Assembly (NCBI GenBank): GCA_026395895.1
Contig: JAPLXV010000003.1
Coordinates: 1 to 56,600, forward strand
Reading direction: 5' to 3'
DNA: 56,600 bases
Source of the DNA: Candidatus Nomurabacteria bacterium
Lineage (GTDB): Bacteria > Patescibacteriota > Minisyncoccia > Phycocordibacterales > UBA9973
In this document: positions 6,806 through 30,968 of the stretch, piece after piece
Numbering within the stretch: position 1 is the stretch's first letter
Layout: every line of letters starts with the position of its first letter
The notes under the pieces: model-generated
Databases searched by the model: none
Seen by the model: only the letters and a program-made list of their open reading frames with translations
Told to the model about the DNA's origin: nothing
Position numbers and translations under genes: made by a program

Positions 6806-6816
6806 TCGTAAAATTA

Positions 6817-6954
6817 TTAGAAAAATAATGTAACGAAGTGAAATATATTTTTCTTAACCCTGTTAAATAATTTTTGCAAGGTAAAAATTGCCCGAAGGGC
6901 ATTTAACAGGGTGATGATTTTTATACTCATTACATTCGTTAAAAATCAATCATG
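6817..6954 (+). ncRNA. Structured leader element, copy 1 (ends at the ATG of the cupin gene)
   Basis: Shares TTAGAAAAATAA...ATATTTTTCTTAACCC..GTTAAATAATTTT...TTTAACAGGGTGATGATTTT...AAAATCAATCATG with 27631-27776. There is a 12 bp stem 6857-6868/6901-6912 enclosing two hairpins. Confidence 0.55.
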
Positions 6955-7350
6955 AAAGGATTTAATGTAAACATAGAGAAAGAAACTTTGGAGAATACAA
7001 ATTTTCGCAAAGTTTTATATACGGGCAAACATAGCCAGTTGGTTTTAATGAGTTTAAAACCCAATGAAGAAATTGGCATGGAAGTTCATACTGACAACGA
7101 TCAATTTTTCCGCATAGAAAGCGGACATGGCAAATGTATTATTGATGGTAATTCCTATGACCTGATCGATGGGTCGGTTATTATTGTTCCTTCTGGTGCT
7201 CAGCACAATGTCATCAATACATCCAGCTCAGAAGATTTGAAACTCTACACAATTTATTCTCCAGCTCATCATCAAGATGGGGTAGTAAGATTTACTAAAG
7301 CAGAAGCGGAAGCCGACAGTCCAGAATTTGATGGAAAAACAACGGAATAA
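6952..7350 (+). CDS. Cupin domain protein
   Basis: GMEVHTDNDQFFRIESGHG...VIIVPSGAQHNVINT shows cupin motifs 1 and 2. Confidence 0.85.
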   Translation: MKGFNVNIEKETLENTNFRKVLYTGKHSQLVLMSLKPNEEIGMEVHTDNDQFFRIESGHGKCIIDGNSYDLIDGSVIIVPSGAQHNVINTSSSEDLKLYTIYSPAHHQDGVVRFTKAEAEADSPEFDGKTTE

Positions 7351-11552: not shown

Positions 11553-13631
11553 ATGGCTAAAGAAAAAGAAGTAAAAAATGGGCACCATTATGATGCCTCT
11601 GATATCTCTGTTTTAGAAGGACTTGATCCAGTCAGACGTCGTCCAGGAATGTATATCGGAACCACCGGTCCAGAAGGTTTACACCATCTCGTTTGGGAAA
11701 TTTTTGATAACTCGCGCGATGAAGCGATGGGTGGTTTTTGTGATGATATAGAAGTTGTCCTTTTGCCGAACAATCGTATTCGAGTGGCAGACAATGGGCG
11801 AGGTGTGCCTGTTGATATTCACAAAAAAACTAAAGTATCTGCTTTGGAAACTGTTATGACTACTCTGCATGCTGGAGGAAAATTCGGTGGAGAAGGCTAT
11901 AAAGTTTCTGGAGGCTTGCATGGAGTGGGAGCGTCAGTAGTAAATGCGCTCTCAATTTATTGTAAAGCGGAAGTGCATAAAGATGGTGGTAAATATATAC
12001 AAGAATATTCTCAAGGTAAGAAAAAAGCTTCAGTAAAAAAAATTGGGTCTTCAAAATTACATGGAACCATCATTACTTTTGAACCAGATCAAGAAATTTT
12101 TAAAGATATAAAGTTTGATTTAAGTACAATTATAAATCATATTCGTCAGCAAGCTTATTTAGTTAAAAAATTAAAAGTTTCAATAATAGATGCGCGAGGT
12201 TGGGATAATAAAAAAGGACTTGATGACTCTGACGTATTTTATTTTAGAGATCTTGGCATAGAACTTCCCTCCACTTCTTTTTATTTTGAAGGAGGATTGA
12301 TTTCTCTTATAAAATATTACAACAAGTTTCAAAAACCACTTCACGATCATATTTTTTATGTTGAAAAAGAATTGGACGGTGTGATGGTTGAAATAGCTTT
12401 ACAATATGTTGATGACATTGTTGATAGAATAATTCCTTTCGCAAATAATATACATACCGCTGAAGGTGGGACACATGTGACTGGTTTTAAAACTGCTCTT
12501 ACTCGCACCTTGAATACTTATTGTAAAAAGAATGAAATGATGAAAGATTCAGAAGGTGGATTTACCGGCGATGATGTACTGGAAGGTCTTACAGCTGTCA
12601 TTTCGGTGAAGTTAAGAGAGATACAATTTGAAGGTCAAACCAAGGCAAAATTAGGCTCTATGGAGGCCCAAGGAGCTGTTGGGACAATTTTTGGGGAGGC
12701 TTTTGCTGCTTTTCTAGAGGAAAACCCAGATGAAGCAAAAGCTATAATAAATAAGTCTATTTTGGCCTTAAAAGCTCGTAAAGCAGCCAAAGCGGCTAAA
12801 GATTCAGTTCTTCGTAAAGGTGCGCTTGAAGGTATGACCCTGCCTGGAAAATTAGCAGATTGCCAAAGCAAAAGTGCAGAAGATTCAGAATTATTTTTAG
12901 TAGAAGGAGATTCGGCAGGAGGTTCGGCTAAACAAGGTAGAGATAGACGCACTCAAGCCATTCTTCCGCTTCGTGGAAAAATTTTAAATGTTGAACGTGC
13001 TCGCATAGATAAAATGCTTGCTTCTAAAGAAGTAAGAGCTCTGGTTATTGCGATGGGTACTTCTATTGGAGACACTTTTGATCTTTCTAAAATGCGTTAT
13101 CACAAAATAATTATTGCCACAGATGCTGATGTGGACGGTGCGCACATTCGCACCCTTTTGCTGACTCTTTTTTATAGATATTTTAGACAAGTTGTGGACG
13201 CGGGCTATATTTATATTGCTCAACCACCACTTTATAAAATAAAAAGAGGAAAGGAAGTTAGTTATGCATATTCCGATGAAGAGAAAATAAAAATTATCGG
13301 TAAAGAAACAGATGTAAGTGAGATACAAGCGGTTAATGATGAAGAACCCCTACCCGACCTCCCCCTTAGTAAGGGGGAGGAGAAAGGAGGGGGTCTAGAG
13401 TCTAAACAATCTACAAAAATTCACATTCAGCGTTATAAAGGTCTCGGAGAAATGAACCCAGAAGAACTTTGGGAAACAACCATGGACCCAGCTCATCGAG
13501 TATTAAAAAAAGTAAATATAGATGATGCCGAAGAGGCCAACAAAATTTTTGAAATTCTGATGGGTTCCGAAGTTCCTCCTCGAAAATCCTTTATCCAATC
13601 TAATGCTAAATTAGCAGAGATTGATATTTAA
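11553..13631 (+). CDS. gyrB: DNA gyrase subunit B
   Basis: YDASDISVLEGLDPVRRRPGMYIG, GGLHGVGASVVNALS, EGDSAGGSAKQGRDR, PLRGKILNVE, QRYKGLGEMNPEELWETTMDP. Confidence 0.97.
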   Translation: MAKEKEVKNGHHYDASDISVLEGLDPVRRRPGMYIGTTGPEGLHHLVWEIFDNSRDEAMGGFCDDIEVVLLPNNRIRVADNGRGVPVDIHKKTKVSALETVMTTLHAGGKFGGEGYKVSGGLHGVGASVVNALSIYCKAEVHKDGGKYIQEYSQGKKKASVKKIGSSKLHGTIITFEPDQEIFKDIKFDLSTIINHIRQQAYLVKKLKVSIIDARGWDNKKGLDDSDVFYFRDLGIELPSTSFYFEGGLISLIKYYNKFQKPLHDHIFYVEKELDGVMVEIALQYVDDIVDRIIPFANNIHTAEGGTHVTGFKTALTRTLNTYCKKNEMMKDSEGGFTGDDVLEGLTAVISVKLREIQFEGQTKAKLGSMEAQGAVGTIFGEAFAAFLEENPDEAKAIINKSILALKARKAAKAAKDSVLRKGALEGMTLPGKLADCQSKSAEDSELFLVEGDSAGGSAKQGRDRRTQAILPLRGKILNVERARIDKMLASKEVRALVIAMGTSIGDTFDLSKMRYHKIIIATDADVDGAHIRTLLLTLFYRYFRQVVDAGYIYIAQPPLYKIKRGKEVSYAYSDEEKIKIIGKETDVSEIQAVNDEEPLPDLPLSKGEEKGGGLESKQSTKIHIQRYKGLGEMNPEELWETTMDPAHRVLKKVNIDDAEEANKIFEILMGSEVPPRKSFIQSNAKLAEIDI
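13346..13394 (+). repeat. GC-rich palindromic module in frame in gyrB (family 3)
   Basis: 10 bp stem CCTCCCCCTT 13358-13367 / AAGGGGGAGG 13371-13380. Outer pair ACCCC 13346-13350 / GGGGT 13390-13394. It encodes PLPDLPLSKGEEKGGG just upstream of the RYKGLGEMNP motif. Confidence 0.8.
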
Positions 13632-13632
13632 T

Positions 13633-15384
13633 TTATTTTTTTTCTTCAATTTCCTTTTTGAGTTTTGAGACAAATTCTTCGGAAGAAATATTTTCTAGTT
13701 TTTCGTTATTTCGTCCTTCTATGGTGAGTTTTTTTGAATCTTTTTCTTTGTCTCCGATAATTATCAAATAAGGAATCTTTTGAATTTTGGCATTACGGAT
13801 TTTTTTACTCAAAGATTCATTTGATTCATCTAATTCTACGCGGATATTATGTTCTTTAAGAATTTTAAAAACTTCACTGGCATAATCTAAATGTTTATCT
13901 TCAGAAATCGGAATAACTTTCACTTGCACAGGGGAGAGCCAAAGAGGGAAGGCGCCGGCATAATGTTCGATCAAGATACCCATGAATCTTTCAAAAGATC
14001 CGAAGATGGCCACATGAAGCACAACCACGCGATGTTTTTTGCCATCTTCTCCAGCATAATCCATTTCAAAATTTTCCGGTTGATTAAAATCAAGTTGTAT
14101 AGTTGCTAGTTGCCATTCTCTTCCTATCGAATCTTTTATCTTTATATCGATTTTTGGTCCGTAAAAAGCAGCTTCTCCCTCTTCAATACTATATTTCAGT
14201 TTCATTTTTTCAGCGGAATTAACCAAGATTTTTTCCGCTTTTTCCCATACGTCATCATTACCGAAATATTTTTCTTTTTTCAATGGGTCTCGTATAGATA
14301 TTTCTATTTTATAATTGTCAAAACCGAATGTGCCATAAACTTTTTTCATTAGACCAAAAATCATTTCAATTTCTGATTCGATTTGGTCGGGTCTTATGAA
14401 ATGGTGCGTGTCATCTTGAGTCAAATTCTTAACACGCAAAAGGCCAGCTAATTCTCCACTTTTTTCATTACGATATACAGTTGTGTTTTCTGCTATACGT
14501 AACGGTAAATCACGATAACTATGTTGTTCAGCGTTATATATTTCAAAATGATGAGGACAATTCATGGCTTTCATGACAAATTCTTCACCATTTTCATCCG
14601 TCATGATTGGCATCATTGCATCGTATTTACCCATGTGTCCGCTTTTTATATAAAGTTCTTTTTTTGCGATATGCGGAATTGTGACAAAAGAATAACCCAG
14701 ATCTTCTTTTTCTTTTCTTATAAAATTTTCTAGTTCAGTTTTTATAATATTACCCTTAGGCAAATACATCGGTAGACCTTTTCCGACTAAATTTGAAACA
14801 GTAAATAATCCCAGTTCTTTTCCTAATTTTTTATGATCTCTCTTTTCTGCTTCTTCGCGCATTTTGATATATTTTTCCAATTCTTCTTTTGTCTCAAATG
14901 CCAATCCATAAATACGAGTGAGCATTTTATTTTTTTCATCTCCACGCCAATATGCTCCAGCTACGCGGTCTAATTTAAACGAGTCCGGTTTTATTTCTTT
15001 AGCTGGGTTTTCTAAATGCCCGCCTCGGCAAAGGTCTGTAAACTTGCCACAAGTATAAAATGTTATTTTTTCTTTCTTCCCAACGATCTCATCTATCAGT
15101 TCTATTTTGTATTCATTTTTTTTGAAGTGTTCTTTTGCTTCTTTTTCACTTTTTTCTGCACTTTCAAATACTTTCCAAGACTTCAAAATCTCTTTCATTT
15201 TCTTCTCTATTTTAGGTAAATCTTTATCAGAAATAGGATTTTTGAATTCAAAATCGTAGTAGAAGCCGTCCTCTATTGACGGACCAATAGTATTTTTAGT
15301 ATCTGGGTACATCTCTAAAACAGCCGCAGCCAAAAGGTGAGCCAATGAGTGTCTTAAATTGTGTAATTTATCAACCTCTGCCAT
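13633..15384 (-). CDS. thrS: Threonine--tRNA ligase (no N-terminal TGS domain)
   Basis: It starts in the editing/SAD region (LRHSLAHLLAAA). Class II core (NCPHH, RVKNLTQDDTHHF, GPKIDIK) and a C-terminal anticodon-binding domain. Confidence 0.95.
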   Translation of the reverse strand: MAEVDKLHNLRHSLAHLLAAAVLEMYPDTKNTIGPSIEDGFYYDFEFKNPISDKDLPKIEKKMKEILKSWKVFESAEKSEKEAKEHFKKNEYKIELIDEIVGKKEKITFYTCGKFTDLCRGGHLENPAKEIKPDSFKLDRVAGAYWRGDEKNKMLTRIYGLAFETKEELEKYIKMREEAEKRDHKKLGKELGLFTVSNLVGKGLPMYLPKGNIIKTELENFIRKEKEDLGYSFVTIPHIAKKELYIKSGHMGKYDAMMPIMTDENGEEFVMKAMNCPHHFEIYNAEQHSYRDLPLRIAENTTVYRNEKSGELAGLLRVKNLTQDDTHHFIRPDQIESEIEMIFGLMKKVYGTFGFDNYKIEISIRDPLKKEKYFGNDDVWEKAEKILVNSAEKMKLKYSIEEGEAAFYGPKIDIKIKDSIGREWQLATIQLDFNQPENFEMDYAGEDGKKHRVVVLHVAIFGSFERFMGILIEHYAGAFPLWLSPVQVKVIPISEDKHLDYASEVFKILKEHNIRVELDESNESLSKKIRNAKIQKIPYLIIIGDKEKDSKKLTIEGRNNEKLENISSEEFVSKLKKEIEEKK

Positions 15385-26489: not shown

Positions 26490-27458
26490 ATGTTTGGAAA
26501 AGAATCATTAAATATTCCTACTATTAAAAAAGAAAAAAAGGAAATTTCGCCCGAAATGCGTGATGGTATTTCATGGGAGGAAAAAATATCTAAATTATAT
26601 TCTTTTTTACGTGAGAAATATCCTGCATTAGAAAAAATAGCAAAAACCTCAAGAGCAACAATTCGTTTGCTTACAGCATTAGTGATACTAGAAGGTGGGC
26701 AACTTTTTGCACAAGAAATTCCTACTAAAAATATTTCAACGAAGGACTTATTCTCTACGGAGGAAATAACCAATCTTAATAGCATGACATTCACTGAAAT
26801 AGCACATCGCTTGGAGCCATTAAAAAAATCACTACCGAATGGCAAGGAGGTGACTTTTTCAAGCACTTTCAAACAAGATGATCAATTAGAAGGGACAGAT
26901 TATAACGGTGTTTTTTCGGAAGGATCTGTACCATCAGACACTGGAATGGTCGGAGATGCAGCAATAGTGTTAAATGATCGACATATTGAAAGAATGGATT
27001 CTGAATCAAGTACAAAAAAGGGAGACGAATTTGATTTTGATCTATATGATCGTGATATTTATTCGGAGATGAAATTTTCCAAATTTGATTCAGGGGAAAT
27101 TAAAGAAATAGGAAATAAAATTACTGTAGTGGGAGGAGGATCAACGAAAGAAGAAGCTGTTATAGAAGCTATGAAATGGCTTTCCATGCGGTATGGACAA
27201 CATCTTTATGGAGGAGATACTGATAATTTAGTAGCTAAAGATTCTAAAGATAATACACACGAATTCAAGCATGTTCGTACAAGTTATGCTTCTTGGAATG
27301 GTATTTCTTTTTTTAAGAATATTCATATAGATAAATTTGAAAGAAAGAATTTAACTAAAGTTGATGCTCTTGGAAAAGAGATAGGGAAAAGTGACAAAAT
27401 TATCTACCATGTTTATGTTTCGGCCCAAAAGGGAATATATGACGGGGAGGAAAGATAA
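26490..27458 (+). CDS. Hypothetical protein with an internal hydrophobic anchor or signal-like segment
   Basis: 322 aa with ATIRLLTALVILEGGQLFAQE near aa 55-75. I recognise no family. Confidence 0.6.
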   Translation: MFGKESLNIPTIKKEKKEISPEMRDGISWEEKISKLYSFLREKYPALEKIAKTSRATIRLLTALVILEGGQLFAQEIPTKNISTKDLFSTEEITNLNSMTFTEIAHRLEPLKKSLPNGKEVTFSSTFKQDDQLEGTDYNGVFSEGSVPSDTGMVGDAAIVLNDRHIERMDSESSTKKGDEFDFDLYDRDIYSEMKFSKFDSGEIKEIGNKITVVGGGSTKEEAVIEAMKWLSMRYGQHLYGGDTDNLVAKDSKDNTHEFKHVRTSYASWNGISFFKNIHIDKFERKNLTKVDALGKEIGKSDKIIYHVYVSAQKGIYDGEER

Positions 27459-27481
27459 TTACAAAAATATTGAATTTTGAT

Positions 27482-27509
27482 TTGACAAAAAAGGGAATGT
27501 GAGTATACT
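27482..27509 (+). promoter_or_regulatory. Candidate sigma-70 promoter for rpoBC
   Basis: TTGACA 27482-27487, 16 nt spacer, TATACT 27504-27509. This implies a ~260 nt 5' UTR. Confidence 0.55.
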
Positions 27510-27630
27510 AGGGTATAAGAGATTGATTGAGTTTCGGATGTATCTCCTAGTTTGTATTAATAGAGCTTAATCATAAATACCTAAATAAATTTAAAAGAAG
27601 CTAGAGAAAAGCATTTCTTTTTTGTTTTGT

Positions 27631-27776
27631 TTAGAAAAATAAGGAACGTAGTGACTATATTTTTCTTAACCCCAGTTAAATAATTTTCTGACTTAGGTCA
27701 GAAAATTCCCTGCAAAGCAGGGATTTAACAGGGTGATGATTTTAATAGTCGTTTCACTCCTTTAAAATCAATCATG
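27631..27776 (+). ncRNA. Structured leader element, copy 2 (ends at the ATG of rpoB)
   Basis: Conserved 5' and 3' blocks shared with 6817-6954. Internal hairpins TTTTCTGAC-TTA-GGTCAGAAAA and TCCCTGC-AAA-GCAGGGA replace the two hairpins of copy 1. Confidence 0.55.
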
Positions 27777-30700
27777 CAAACAGAAAAACGTCCAAAGAAG
27801 TATTTTGCCAGATACAAGGATCCATTAATAGAATTTCCTAATTTAATAGAAGCTCAAACTAAATCTTACAAGTGGCTTGTGGAAGAGGGTTTGAAGGAAG
27901 TTTTTAAGGAATTTTCTCCAATCATCGATTACTCTGGAAAAAAGTTTGAACTTGAGTTCACCTCTTTTTCTTTGGGTGAGCCTAATTGCGATGAGAATGA
28001 TGCGAAAATAAATAAACTCTCATATCAAGGGCTTTTGAAGACGCGAGTAAAATTAAAAAATAAAATTTTAGGAACCGAAAAAGAGCAAGAAATTTTTATG
28101 TCTGAAATTCCACTTATGACTGCACACGGAACTTTTATTATCAATGGAGTAGAGCGTGTGATTGTGCCACAGCTTGCAAGAAGTTTTGGAGTCTTTTTTA
28201 CTGAATCTGAAAATAAAGGCAAAAGATATTTTGGGGCAAAAATTATTCCAGCTCGTGGAGTTTGGATTGAAATAGAATCAGAATCTGATGGGGCAATTTA
28301 TATAAGAATAGACAAAAAAAGAAAATTTCCTGCTACCGCTTTGCTTCGAGTAATGGGATATGAAACGAATGAGATGATGCTCAAAGCATTTTCCGCCAAA
28401 GGCGGACAAGCCTCTGGCTTGGAAAACATATGCAAAGAAGCCATTGAAGCTTGTTTGGCAAAAGATGTAGCCAAAACATTAAATGATGCATATATTGAAA
28501 TATATAAACGCTTAAGAGACGGAGACATGGCTACTCCCGAGAATGCTAAAGAATTTATTAATTCTTTATTTACCCCTGAAAGATATGATCTTTCTCCAGT
28601 TGGACGATACCGATTTAATAAACGTTTTGAAAAATCTCTGGAAGAAGACGAACTTGCTCGCCGAACTATTTCTAAAGAAGATTTAATGACTGTCATTGCA
28701 AATATTATTGTTTTAAACAATACTCCTGGAGCTAAATCCGACGATATTGATCACTTGGGCCAAAGACGTGTTCGATTTGTTGGAGAAATGCTTCAGCAAA
28801 AAGTGCGTACTGGTATGATGCAAATAAAGAGAAACATTCAAGACAGAATGTCTATTATTGATGTTGATACTGCCATGCCCATCCATATTATCAATCAACG
28901 TCCACTCCAAGCTCGCATTAAAGAATTTTTTACTACCAACCAACTTTCGCAATTTATGTCGCAGGAAAATGTGCTGGCAGAGATAGAACACATTCGTTTG
29001 CTTTCTGCCCTTGGTCCTGGGGGACTTACTCGTGAACGCGCAGGTCTAGAAGTTCGAGACGTGCACCCTTCTCACTATGGACGTGTTTGTCCTATTCATA
29101 CTCCAGAAGGTCCAAACATTGGACTTATTTTACATCTTTCTACTTATGCAAAAATAAATGATTTTGGAATTATTGAAACTCCATATATAAAAGTTAAAAA
29201 TGGAAAAATCACCGGAGAAGTTCAATATTTAAATGCACTGGAAGAAGAAAAATACAATATTGCCCATGCTGGAATTCTTTATGATGAGCATGGAAAAATA
29301 ACAGAAGAAAAAGTAGCAGCCAGAATAAAAACTAATCCAGGAATGATAAATCGCGATCAAGTTGATTTTATTGATGTGGCTGCTAATCAGGGTTTTTCTC
29401 TAGCAACTTCTATGATTCCATTTTTGGAACATAATGACGCTAACCGTTCGCTCATGGGAAGTAACATGCAAAAACAAGCAGTGCCTTGTGTTCTTCCTGA
29501 AGCACCATTGGTGGCCACCGGAATTGAAGCGATGGCTTCTCGCTACTCTGGTAGAATGGTTATTGCTTTAGAAGATGGGGTTGTTTCTTATTTAGATGCA
29601 AAGAAAATAGTAGTCAAAGGAAAATCAGAAAAAACTTATACGCTCGTTAATTTTTTGAGGAATAATAACTTTTCTGCCTTTCATCAACGTCCTTCGGTAG
29701 ATGTTGGCCAAAAAATAAAAAAAGGAGACGTTTTAGCTGATACAACCAGCACAGTAGATGGACAAATTTCAGTTGGACAAAATATCTTTGTGGCTTTCTT
29801 GTCTTGGTCTGGATCAAACTATGAAGATGCTATAGTTATTTCTGAACGTCTTATAAAAAAGAGTAAATTTACCAGTGTTTATGTTGAAGAGTTCGTTTGC
29901 ACAGTTCGTGATACGAAACTTGGACCTGAAATTACTACTCGAGATATTCCAAACGTTGGAGAATTAAAACTAAAAGATTTGGATGAGGATGGTATCGTTC
30001 GTATTGGAGCTGAAGTGAGAGAGAATGATATTTTAATAGGTAAAATTACTCCCAAAGGTGAAACAGAACTTACTCCAGAAGAAAGATTACTTCGTTCAAT
30101 TTTTGCCGAAAAAGCACGTGATGTGAAAGATACATCACTTCGCATGGAACACGGCAAACGTGGACGTATTATTGGTGTTAAAATTTTCTCTCGCGATTTA
30201 GGTCATACACTTGAAGCAGGAATTATTAAAAAGATTGTGATTGAAGTTGCTCAAATTAGAAATATTTCAGTCGGGGATAAACTTTCTGGACGACACGGAA
30301 ACAAAGGAGTTATTTCAAGAATTCTTTCAGAAGAAGATATGCCTTATACAGCAGATGGTACACCAGTTGATATTGTTCTTTCACCTTTAGGTGTTCCTTC
30401 TCGTATGAATCTAGGACAAGTTTTAGAAATGCATCTTGGTATGGCAGCCAATACTCTAGGATATCAAGCCATCGTTCCTCCATTTTTAGGAGCCAGTCAT
30501 GAAGAAATAAAAGAGGAATTAAAGAAAGCTGGATTTCCTGAAAATGGTAAATTAAAACTTTTTGACGGACGCACAGGAGAAGCTTTTGATCAAGATATTG
30601 CTGTTGGTTATATGTATATGTTGAAGCTTCATCATATGGTAGAAGATAAAATTCATATGCGTTCTATTGGACCTTACTCTCTTATTACTCAACAGCCATT

Positions 30701-30968
30701 AGGCGGTAAAGCTCAAGGTGGAGGACAAAGATTCGGAGAAATGGAAGTATGGGCCTTGGAAGGATATGGCGCAGCTTATACTTTACGAGAAATGCTTACT
30801 ATCAAGTCTGATGACATTTTAGGTCGTTCCCAGACTTTTGATTCTATTATCAAAAACGAAGTCATTAAACCGCCAAATTCTCCAGCATCATTCAATGTGT
30901 TGCTAAATTATTTACGAGGGCTTGCGCTTGATGTTAACTTGAAAAAATACAATGAAAACTTTAAATAA
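27774..30968 (+). CDS. rpoB: DNA-directed RNA polymerase subunit beta
   Basis: LIEAQTKSY, GTFIINGVERVIV, RLLSALGPGGLTRERAG.EVRDVH.SHYGR.CPI.TPEGPNIGL, GRHGNKGV, GGQRFGEMEVWALE. Confidence 0.98.
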   Translation: MQTEKRPKKYFARYKDPLIEFPNLIEAQTKSYKWLVEEGLKEVFKEFSPIIDYSGKKFELEFTSFSLGEPNCDENDAKINKLSYQGLLKTRVKLKNKILGTEKEQEIFMSEIPLMTAHGTFIINGVERVIVPQLARSFGVFFTESENKGKRYFGAKIIPARGVWIEIESESDGAIYIRIDKKRKFPATALLRVMGYETNEMMLKAFSAKGGQASGLENICKEAIEACLAKDVAKTLNDAYIEIYKRLRDGDMATPENAKEFINSLFTPERYDLSPVGRYRFNKRFEKSLEEDELARRTISKEDLMTVIANIIVLNNTPGAKSDDIDHLGQRRVRFVGEMLQQKVRTGMMQIKRNIQDRMSIIDVDTAMPIHIINQRPLQARIKEFFTTNQLSQFMSQENVLAEIEHIRLLSALGPGGLTRERAGLEVRDVHPSHYGRVCPIHTPEGPNIGLILHLSTYAKINDFGIIETPYIKVKNGKITGEVQYLNALEEEKYNIAHAGILYDEHGKITEEKVAARIKTNPGMINRDQVDFIDVAANQGFSLATSMIPFLEHNDANRSLMGSNMQKQAVPCVLPEAPLVATGIEAMASRYSGRMVIALEDGVVSYLDAKKIVVKGKSEKTYTLVNFLRNNNFSAFHQRPSVDVGQKIKKGDVLADTTSTVDGQISVGQNIFVAFLSWSGSNYEDAIVISERLIKKSKFTSVYVEEFVCTVRDTKLGPEITTRDIPNVGELKLKDLDEDGIVRIGAEVRENDILIGKITPKGETELTPEERLLRSIFAEKARDVKDTSLRMEHGKRGRIIGVKIFSRDLGHTLEAGIIKKIVIEVAQIRNISVGDKLSGRHGNKGVISRILSEEDMPYTADGTPVDIVLSPLGVPSRMNLGQVLEMHLGMAANTLGYQAIVPPFLGASHEEIKEELKKAGFPENGKLKLFDGRTGEAFDQDIAVGYMYMLKLHHMVEDKIHMRSIGPYSLITQQPLGGKAQGGGQRFGEMEVWALEGYGAAYTLREMLTIKSDDILGRSQTFDSIIKNEVIKPPNSPASFNVLLNYLRGLALDVNLKKYNENFK
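28392..28421 (+). repeat. 30 nt tandem-hairpin module in frame in rpoB (family 2)
   Basis: TCCGCC-AAA-GGCGGA, then CAAGCC-TCT-GGCTTG. Codon-aligned; encodes SAKGGQASGL. Confidence 0.8.

Follow-up and report, generated by a model that had tools for sequence, protein, structure and literature searches.

The subject of this analysis is an element of about 140 nucleotides that occurs twice in a window of 56,600 nucleotides of DNA from Candidatus Nomurabacteria bacterium (contig JAPLXV010000003.1), at positions 6816-6954 and 27630-27776, each copy closing on the ATG of an open reading frame (ORF). Both copies had been noticed, with boundaries that agree to within one nucleotide, in a preliminary description made from the sequence alone. 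The element is a new lineage-specific family of the Paceibacteria and a candidate for Rfam; its members fold into three tandem hairpin domains and, with few exceptions, abut the start codon of a real gene in sense orientation. While the family, its structure, its placement and its conservation are shown, action at the level of RNA, with initiation as the target, is our inference. Among the possible readings we tentatively put first that of a weak, tunable translation-initiation gate and insulator.

The frame downstream of the first copy (6952-7350) encodes a cupin (Cupin_2 match, E = 1e-14), and that downstream of the second (27774-30968) is rpoB, in which RNA polymerase beta-subunit domains were found. 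As had been described, the outer blocks are identical in both copies: the 20-mer TTTAACAGGGTGATGATTTT is present twice in the window, against a chance expectation of 0.07. Compared with shuffled sequences, the two copies fold with z = -5.2 and -7.0. No third copy was detected in the window by the covariance model built for the family (R1). The two copies and their parts are, all on the forward strand:

27630..27776 (+), copy 2, entire cassette to the rpoB ATG; model R1, 133.7 bits, E = 3.7e-30
27633..27666 (+), copy 2, domain D1; helix AGAAAAAUAAG:CUAUAUUUUUCU with one bulged A, its upper part consisting of tandem G.A, then two base pairs, then a GUA triloop
27669..27734 (+), copy 2, domain P2; stem ACCCCAGUUAAAU/AUUUAACAGGGU around hairpins 27682-27707 and 27707-27723
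27735..27773 (+), copy 2, domain D3; GAUGAUUUUAA:UUAAAAUCAAUC, the 3' arm being positions -1 to -12 of the start region; upper part with a bulged U, one G-C pair that covaries, the mismatches U.C/C.U, two base pairs and a triloop
27774..27776 (+), rpoB start codon, directly 3' of D3
6816..6954 (+), copy 1, entire cassette to the cupin ATG; model R1, 131.9 bits, E = 9.7e-30
6819..6854 (+), copy 1, domain D1; alignment columns as in copy 2
6857..6912 (+), copy 1, domain P2; stem ACCCUGUUAAAU/AUUUAACAGGGU around two hairpins
6913..6951 (+), copy 1, domain D3; the 10 nucleotides preceding the AUG are paired
6952..6954 (+), cupin start codon, ORF 6952-7350
6809..6814 (+), TAAAAT, a possible -10 box just 5' of copy 1, recognized by eye only; a strict promoter scan made no call
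27482..27509 (+), promoter-like site TTGACA-16-TATACT, an 11/12 match, about 120 nucleotides 5' of copy 2

Covariation, judged with RNAalifold and with explicit counts of pairs in a MAFFT alignment that was not fitted to any structure, supports the three tandem domains. Pairing extends to 93.3% of all cells, and at 19 pairs both sides have changed; none of 500 shuffles did as well, and slid controls reached 35-51%. D1 is formed by blocks A and B (AGAAAAAUAAG:CUAUAUUUUUCU, with one bulged A), above which follow tandem G.A, two pairs that covary and an insertion-tolerant loop; its covariation lies at columns 12:48, 13:47, 16:43, 20:39 and 21:38 of alignment A2. P2 is the long-range stem around two hairpins that had been described before, and it covaries strongly over 24-31 homologues, with 9 of its 12 stem pairs changing on both sides; its interiors are indeed unrelated between the two window copies. 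In D3, block C pairs with the start region, GAUGAUUUUWA with UWAAAAUCAAUC (positions -1 to -12), and the upper part has, family-wide, a bulged U followed by one covarying pair, the mismatches U.C/C.U, two more pairs that covary and, last, a triloop; the covariation of D3 lies at 137:173, 143:149 and 144:148. Compensatory changes in the basal helix of D3, U:A to A:U and U:A to C:G, occur in two copies found without the search pattern (L002:4169 and L029:2610). Only the open junction, AGA / UCUUAACCC / GGGUGA, where the AUG is located, is truly invariant. The earlier picture of a structure that is kept while its sequence varies, at a fixed position relative to the initiation codon, is thus borne out. 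On inspection of the alignment, the middle positions of the D1 and D3 triloops are without the covariation expected of a kissing interaction. An upstream ORF starting from the invariant GUG-AUG in block C was also considered and rejected: no conserved peptide results, because frame and stop position vary, shifted by insertions. Read in antisense, the second P2 hairpin (P2b) followed by the T-run of the first (P2a) resembles an intrinsic terminator (27707-27723 and 6889-6901, reverse strand) and might stop antisense transcription.

One component of the preliminary description, an outer stem enclosing the entire element, gives way to the arrangement of D1, P2 and D3 in tandem around the open junction. 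The covarying outermost pairing reported with it stands in part, in that the complementarities exist in both window copies, but they do not amount to a conserved helix across the family. The window copies seemed to show a covarying outer stem because the tips of D1 and D3 are complementary family-wide, in every copy. However, duplexes of cognate and non-cognate tips have the same predicted energy (-12.8 versus -12.7 kcal/mol, permutation p = 0.41), and the variable positions are mostly unpaired across the arms (16:173 in 11 of 22 sequences, 43:137 in 17 of 24) and covary within their own arm, D1 or D3. The outer stem is rejected as a conserved helix by these duplex energies and pair counts, and we keep it as a possible alternative state.

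The family was collected by scanning one genome per GTDB species and JGI metagenomes with the pattern TTTTCTTAACC-N40-70-GGTGATGATTTT, which includes neither end of the element. Exact-pattern scans returned 28 non-identical true copies together with obvious chance matches, and within the same loci model R1 picked up further copies without the exact pattern, for a total of 31 distinct sequences (alignment A3). The covariance model accepted none of ten pattern matches in viral contigs. All true copies are in Paceibacteria/Parcubacteria records, labelled Paceibacterota, Nomurabacteria, Yonathbacteria or Parcubacteria, and the rpoB of the window is closest to those of Paceibacterota and Nomurabacteria. 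Two of the records, L001 and L011, are titled 'Saccharibacteria'; L001 is without rpoB, and we treat the label of L011 as unreliable because its rpoB shares 80% identity with that of the window, which is of Paceibacterota type. With 2 copies in the 56.6-kb window and roughly 7 more in ~200 kb of flanking sequence elsewhere, we estimate a density on the order of one copy per ~30 kb; locus L037 holds three full copies and one rearranged copy within 14.5 kb.

The preliminary description had named two outcomes that would speak against its proposal: copies placed at random with target-site duplications, as in a plain MITE (a miniature transposable element with inverted repeats), or no more copies and no covariation. 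Since further copies exist in Paceibacteria, non-randomly placed and without target-site duplications, and since they covary, neither applies. Its statement that the element belongs to no known riboswitch class agrees with our Rfam searches, in which the element matched no family: at the gathering threshold of Rfam 15, the window and 17 motif-bearing loci yield tRNAs only, and at E <= 10 the region 27450-27850 gives chance-level matches only, with no ribozyme and no riboswitch. In the literature on RNA motifs, leaders, MITEs and leaderless mRNAs of the Candidate Phyla Radiation (CPR)/Patescibacteria, we found no published description of the motif.

About 30 of 33 copies end exactly at an ATG that opens a real gene, all of them in sense orientation, and in the ~700 kb searched none lies away from these positions; the exceptions to exact abutment are L026, with ATA for ATG, and L029:12342 and L045, where the gene starts farther downstream. 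Genes with roles in translation and transcription are strongly enriched downstream of the copies, where we find rpoB (twice), nusA (three times), typA (twice), fusA, rpsL, rpsG, rplN, rplE, rplK, rpmI, rplT, groEL, gatA, adk, pilB, pilC, rseP, htpX, two genes for solute-binding proteins, and genes for a major facilitator superfamily (MFS) transporter, an RNase T-type exonuclease and the cupin. The upstream boundary is of several kinds. In 15 of the 33 copies, the stop codon (UAG or UAA) of an upstream ORF on the same strand lies inside block A, so that these copies must be co-transcribed with that ORF; among them are copies within classical operons (rpsL-rpsG, rpsQ-rplN, rplX-rplE, rpmI-rplT, groES-groEL). 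Others have a -10 box 5-9 nucleotides 5' of block A, several with a TGn extension (L016, L013, L003, L026), and still others begin right after a terminator-like hairpin, before nusA (3 copies), secE and fusA. In this last group, a GC-rich hairpin with a T-run abuts block A and leaves no room for a promoter (L001, L017/L053 and L046 for nusA, L041 for secE, L025 for fusA); before nusA it could be a leader attenuator. The 'mobile leader cassette' of the preliminary description is apt only in part: presence, absence and scars of the element fit mobility, but 'leader' is too narrow because many copies are intercistronic, beginning at the upstream stop codon. In three copies, extra structured inserts of 70-100 nucleotides lie within D3 (L014:5904-6131 before rplK, L020:1554-1766 before rpmI and L020:1001-1241 before rplT), which could be gene-specific binding sites grafted on the common cassette, for example for autoregulation by L1 or L20.

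Copies in front of orthologous genes are 71-92% identical, compared with 30-46% at four-fold degenerate third codon positions. This conservation in place indicates either purifying selection or continuing homogenisation.

The start regions of the host provide the setting for these observations. Window genes are without Shine-Dalgarno sequences and have A/T-rich upstream regions, a character that block D at the 3' end of the element shares. Many of them carry an extended -10 box (TGnTAnnAT) 6-9 nucleotides before the ATG, for example at 11553, 9000, 6308 and 23674 on the forward and at 15384 and 54690 on the reverse strand, and this placement suggests, as far as sequence goes, that leaderless mRNAs are widespread in this Paceibacterota genome. 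The loci we fetched contain no 16S rRNA sequence against which the complementarity of GGUGAU or CUUAACCC could be compared.

What, then, might the element do? Its fold, its abutment to the AUG on the sense strand, the enrichment of its downstream genes and its conservation in place together argue for a host-level, cis-acting role at the adjacent start site; and because D3 pairs the A-rich, Shine-Dalgarno-less landing region, the action on the abutting start site is most likely post-transcriptional. In the gate and insulator that we favour, each cassette fills the whole space from the end of the upstream unit, which may be a stop codon, the start of transcription or an attenuator hairpin, to the AUG of the next gene, mostly a highly expressed one. 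The RNA folds as three hairpins around an open junction with the start codon at the junction, D3 pairs the A-rich landing region at -1 to -10, and a set of housekeeping genes would have the gate in common. At the level of the DNA, the family would be kept by duplication or gene conversion and lost through internal deletion. We also count in favour of such a gate that, at the cupin locus of relatives, hairpins unrelated to the motif likewise run up to or into the AUG.

Several observations weigh against a gate. Within the helices, G.U pairs (23) barely exceed A.C mismatches (19), so that strand-specific selection on the RNA is not demonstrated. Blocks B and C are fixed by the search pattern, so their conservation in pattern-derived copies is partly ascertainment and the apparent sequence conservation is inflated. 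The predicted cost of opening positions -12 to +3 is on average 2.85 kcal/mol in motif copies compared with 3.44 kcal/mol in other window genes; strong occlusion is therefore not predicted, and D3 would be at most a weak gate. The mirror symmetry between the tips of D1 and D3 might just as well stem from an inverted repeat of the DNA. At rpoB, close relatives show nothing more than scars of the element, or no element at all, and the P2 interiors are near-identical among copies of one genome and can be inverted between copies, as set out below.

While a gate is the reading we prefer, a module for RNA processing or stability is a serious, if unlikely, rival. D1, D3 or a long duplex of the D1 and D3 tips would be cut by RNase III or would block RNase J; cistrons would thereby be separated, the upstream mRNA protected and the downstream mRNA freed with a short A-rich leader or none. 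The RNase III signals of the T7 early region and the leaders of lambda N and Escherichia coli adhE, which are activated by RNase III, are cases in which processing shapes mRNA stability and translation. Like the T7 sites, the copies present irregular hairpins with internal loops between cistrons, just 5' of starts, with sequence common to the sites; however, the T7 sites are single hairpins of ~60 nucleotides followed by a normal Shine-Dalgarno leader, whereas the motif has three domains, is without Shine-Dalgarno sequence and is structured up to position -1. Processing would suit the exact 3' edge at the AUG, the span of the cassette from stop to start between cistrons that are tightly linked in other bacteria, and the window promoters, which suggest leaderless mRNAs that the host apparently translates well. 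The hairpin geometry (irregular, ~20 bp) is compatible, and a nuclease that recognizes its site would account for the invariant helix sequences. Related loci contain rnc, and RNase III, RNase J and PNPase are all retained by CPR bacteria (PMC12641178). However, a cut by RNase III at the very base of a helix would be atypical, close relatives manage without the element, and no known ribozyme core is present, GUGAUGA not being the CUGANGA of the hammerhead and Rfam giving no hit at E <= 10. The hammerhead core, CUGANGA ... GAAA around three stems with cleavage after NUH, was rejected: GUGAUGA has G at the essential C3, a GAAA strand is missing, the junction strands are UA and zero nucleotides, and Rfam is negative. 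A kink-turn or box C/D motif was likewise rejected, as the opposite strand is CUUAA-CCC, with AA for GA, a conserved CUGA is missing and the tandem G.A of D1 is without a 3-nucleotide bulge.

The other serious, if unlikely, rival is an essentially selfish or domesticated palindromic repeat, of the kind of MITE, REPIN, Correia or ERIC, that survives only where it is harmless to expression; spacers of 5-25 nucleotides leave stop-start gaps for it, and the hairpins would reflect needs of single-stranded DNA or of recombination. Presence and absence at orthologous sites together with several similar copies per genome, as expected of mobile repeats, are indeed found, and the near equality of G.U and A.C and the mirrored tips of D1 and D3 fit as well. 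The homogenised P2 module with its loops is inverted between two copies on one contig (L056:6413-6565 and L056:2068-2212), where 58 of 61 positions are identical to the reverse complement and 35 of 61 in direct comparison, and again between L023 and L026; the reversal is a DNA inversion between the arms of the P2 stem. At rpoB, the full element is present in the window and in L011. The colinear leader in L072 (81% amino-acid identity) ends TTTAGGAATCAATAACC|ATG and looks like block A fused to block D, in L071 (90%) ...ATAAGGATTTAACTCAATCAATC|ATG remains, and in L069 (83%) and more distant relatives there is no element. Before secE, a truncated remnant joins D1 directly to block D (L014/L041:5105-5165). 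The scars at rpoB in L071 and L072, where the 5' end of block A is joined to block D, and the secE remnant are decayed copies, consistent with deletion between A-runs.

The cupin locus, with flanks that align at the nucleotide level, tells a similar story. The slot occupied by the motif in the window holds, in L079:9854-10000, L080:4731-4877 and L078:9875-10000, unrelated long hairpins of 125-150 nucleotides (z = -4.6 and -3.7) whose outer stems reach or include the AUG and which are flanked by direct repeats ATGAA(A); in L081 it measures only 44 nucleotides. The repeats, seen in L078 and L079, look, by sequence, like those of a MITE insertion with target-site duplication, and such other palindromic elements in the slot fit the repeat reading. 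Three short-read assemblies of the same organism (L075, L076 and L077) stop 31-38 nucleotides before the cupin ATG, inside the motif, as would be expected of a repeat that breaks the assembly graph. A rearranged relative of the element, L037:3205-3333, has P2 as in the other L037 copies, D1 replaced by a duplicate of P2a and a short D3; TGTTACAAT lies upstream, and a 10-nucleotide direct repeat, ATAGAGTAAA, flanks it, with the second copy overlapping the ATG.

Against a mere repeat stand the always sense orientation, the 3' end flush with the ATG in ~90% of copies, the lack of copies elsewhere in the sequence searched, the enrichment of downstream genes, and orthologous-gene copies far more conserved than neutral sites. 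The hallmarks of transposition are also missing from the motif itself. At its ends there is no target-site duplication, the longest common string being 4.66 for cognate and 4.62 for non-cognate ends; the true ends, TTTAGAAAAATA and AAAATCAATC, are not inverted, and the mirrored segments are subterminal only; in the flanks covered, no transposase adjoins any copy, whereas REP/REPIN or IS200/IS605-derived elements would go with a RAYT or TnpA (HUH) enzyme and a specific 4-5-nucleotide target on their 5' side; and the left flanks share no tetranucleotide beyond T-richness. A MITE with terminal inverted repeats was rejected on the first two of these grounds and on the sense-only orientation at the ATG. 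Even so, the family behaves like a DNA cassette that is gained, made uniform within genomes, inverted in part and deleted. Such DNA-level dynamics are real, and they may coexist with a function of the RNA.

Rather unlikely, in our estimate, is that the cassette serves hosts without Shine-Dalgarno sequences and with leaderless-looking mRNAs as a dedicated start-site device. As a docking or hand-over site for ribosomes, it would hold the AUG at a three-helix junction beside the upstream stop, like a bacterial internal ribosome entry site, a shunt or a termination upstream ribosome-binding site (TURBS); as a new self-cleaving or nuclease-guided module, it would be cut exactly at the AUG and so yield leaderless mRNAs from operons.

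Less probable again is a two-state switch or cistron-to-cistron hand-over of ribosomes. If D1 were opened, for example by a ribosome terminating on the UAG or UAA of block A, its tip would pair with that of D3; D3 would come undone and release the AUG beside the stop codon, so that coupled re-initiation across 140 nucleotides would be possible, by analogy with viral shunting or TURBS. The stop codons in block A in 15 of 33 copies accord with this, as does the exact complementarity between the nucleotides that are conserved but unpaired in the two tips, G,A,G,A,G,A in D1 and C,U,C,U,C,U in D3; across the arms, 40:142 is G-C and 42:141 A-U in 23 of 24 sequences each. The three-hairpin and outer-stem states are also nearly isoenergetic, with means of -41.9 and -40.7 kcal/mol and the hairpin state lower in 17 of 31 copies. 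However, no covariation between the arms is seen at the variable positions, half of the copies precede highly expressed genes although no upstream ORF ends in their block A, and overlapping stop and start codons would be a far cheaper means of coupling. A DNA promoter cassette, finally, with T(T/A)AAAAT followed by CAATC as the -10 box of a leaderless transcript from the A of the ATG, is very improbable: the block D TAAAAT lies 5 nucleotides before the ATG, a spacing like that of leaderless-type promoters in the window, and a weak match TAGAAA-18-TATATT lies inside D1, but there is neither a -35 box nor a TGn extension, AT-rich hexamers are common by chance in this genome, and covariation, variable hairpins and insertion-tolerant loops would have no role in a promoter.

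How does the element compare with known systems? Integron attC sites have core sites 5'-RYYYAAC ... GTTRRRY-3' and lie near an integrase and a cassette array; we rejected this identity, as the P2 arms GTTAAAT...ATTTAAC have the opposite order of core sites, those of other copies are unrelated (for example CCCCCTCTTTTT/AAAAAGAGGGGG), and an integron context is lacking. A riboswitch was rejected on its downstream genes, which span transcription, translation, chaperone, secretion, pili, proteases and transporters without a single theme, and an operon-specific ribosomal-protein leader on the presence of the same motif before rpsL, rpsG, rplN, rplE, rplK, rpmI, rplT and many non-ribosomal genes. 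The element resembles such leaders and riboswitches in being a structured, covarying 5' untranslated element before translation genes with the initiation region paired (PMC7247131). However, known ribosomal-protein leaders serve one operon and mimic one rRNA site, and riboswitches precede ligand-linked genes, whereas the motif precedes more than 20 unrelated genes.

Co-transcribed small palindromic intergenic repeats include Correia/NEMIS in Neisseria, ERIC/IRU in enterobacteria, BOX/RUP in Streptococcus, and REP/REPIN, and such repeats can alter mRNA stability or expression. The element shares with the Correia, ERIC, BOX, RUP and REP families a length of 100-150 nucleotides, multiple intergenic copies, stable hairpins and presence or absence between strains. 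Those repeats, however, insert in either orientation at variable distance from genes, mostly with terminal inverted repeats and target duplications or a RAYT transposase, whereas the motif is sense-only, flush with the ATG, without duplication and strongly conserved in place. Matus-Garcia, Nijveen and van Passel reportedly described, in 2012, 'putative mobile promoters', homologous upstream segments before non-homologous genes in one genome. These are defined by sequence reuse alone, whereas the motif also has a fold supported by covariation, abuts the ATG exactly and is conserved between species. Two further parallels would be functional analogies without homology: the eukaryotic 5' terminal oligopyrimidine (5'TOP) motif, a common leader feature marking the mRNAs of the translation machinery, and viral shunt or TURBS structures, which bring stop and start together for re-initiation.

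Some observations concern the two window loci in their own right. The promoter-like site at 27482-27509, named as a candidate in the preliminary description, is conserved in orthologous rpoB leaders (L069, L071 and L072). A promoter TTGAC-16-TATACT is common to the rpoB leaders of many Paceibacteria and is followed by a conserved box, (C)TGATTGAGT...GGATG.ATCTC (27516-27560 in the window; also L069, L071, L072, L067, L068 and L073), which has no connection with the motif and could represent an rpoB leader element of its own. On long contigs in L067, L068 and L069, rpoB and rpoC are broken into many short ORFs, which are probably long-read frameshift errors and not biology. The 132-residue cupin (6952-7350) is exceptionally conserved in Paceibacterota, with more than 100 clusters at 83-97% identity and 8000 hits scored, and its homologs are always near pheS/pheT and a UvrD- or DUF2779-type gene.

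On the whole, the interpretation given in the preliminary description is partly supported. Paceibacteria, like the CPR at large, are uncultivated, have tiny genomes and few known regulators, and are without Shine-Dalgarno sequences here. One conserved cassette at the starts of genes for RNA polymerase, ribosomal proteins, elongation factors and chaperones offers a concrete handle on the control of expression in these organisms. Even if it were only a domesticated repeat, it would be an unusual one, tolerating or requiring exact abutment to the start codon and evolving by module inversion and gene conversion. In practice, the cassette marks gene starts in these genomes and breaks short-read assemblies.

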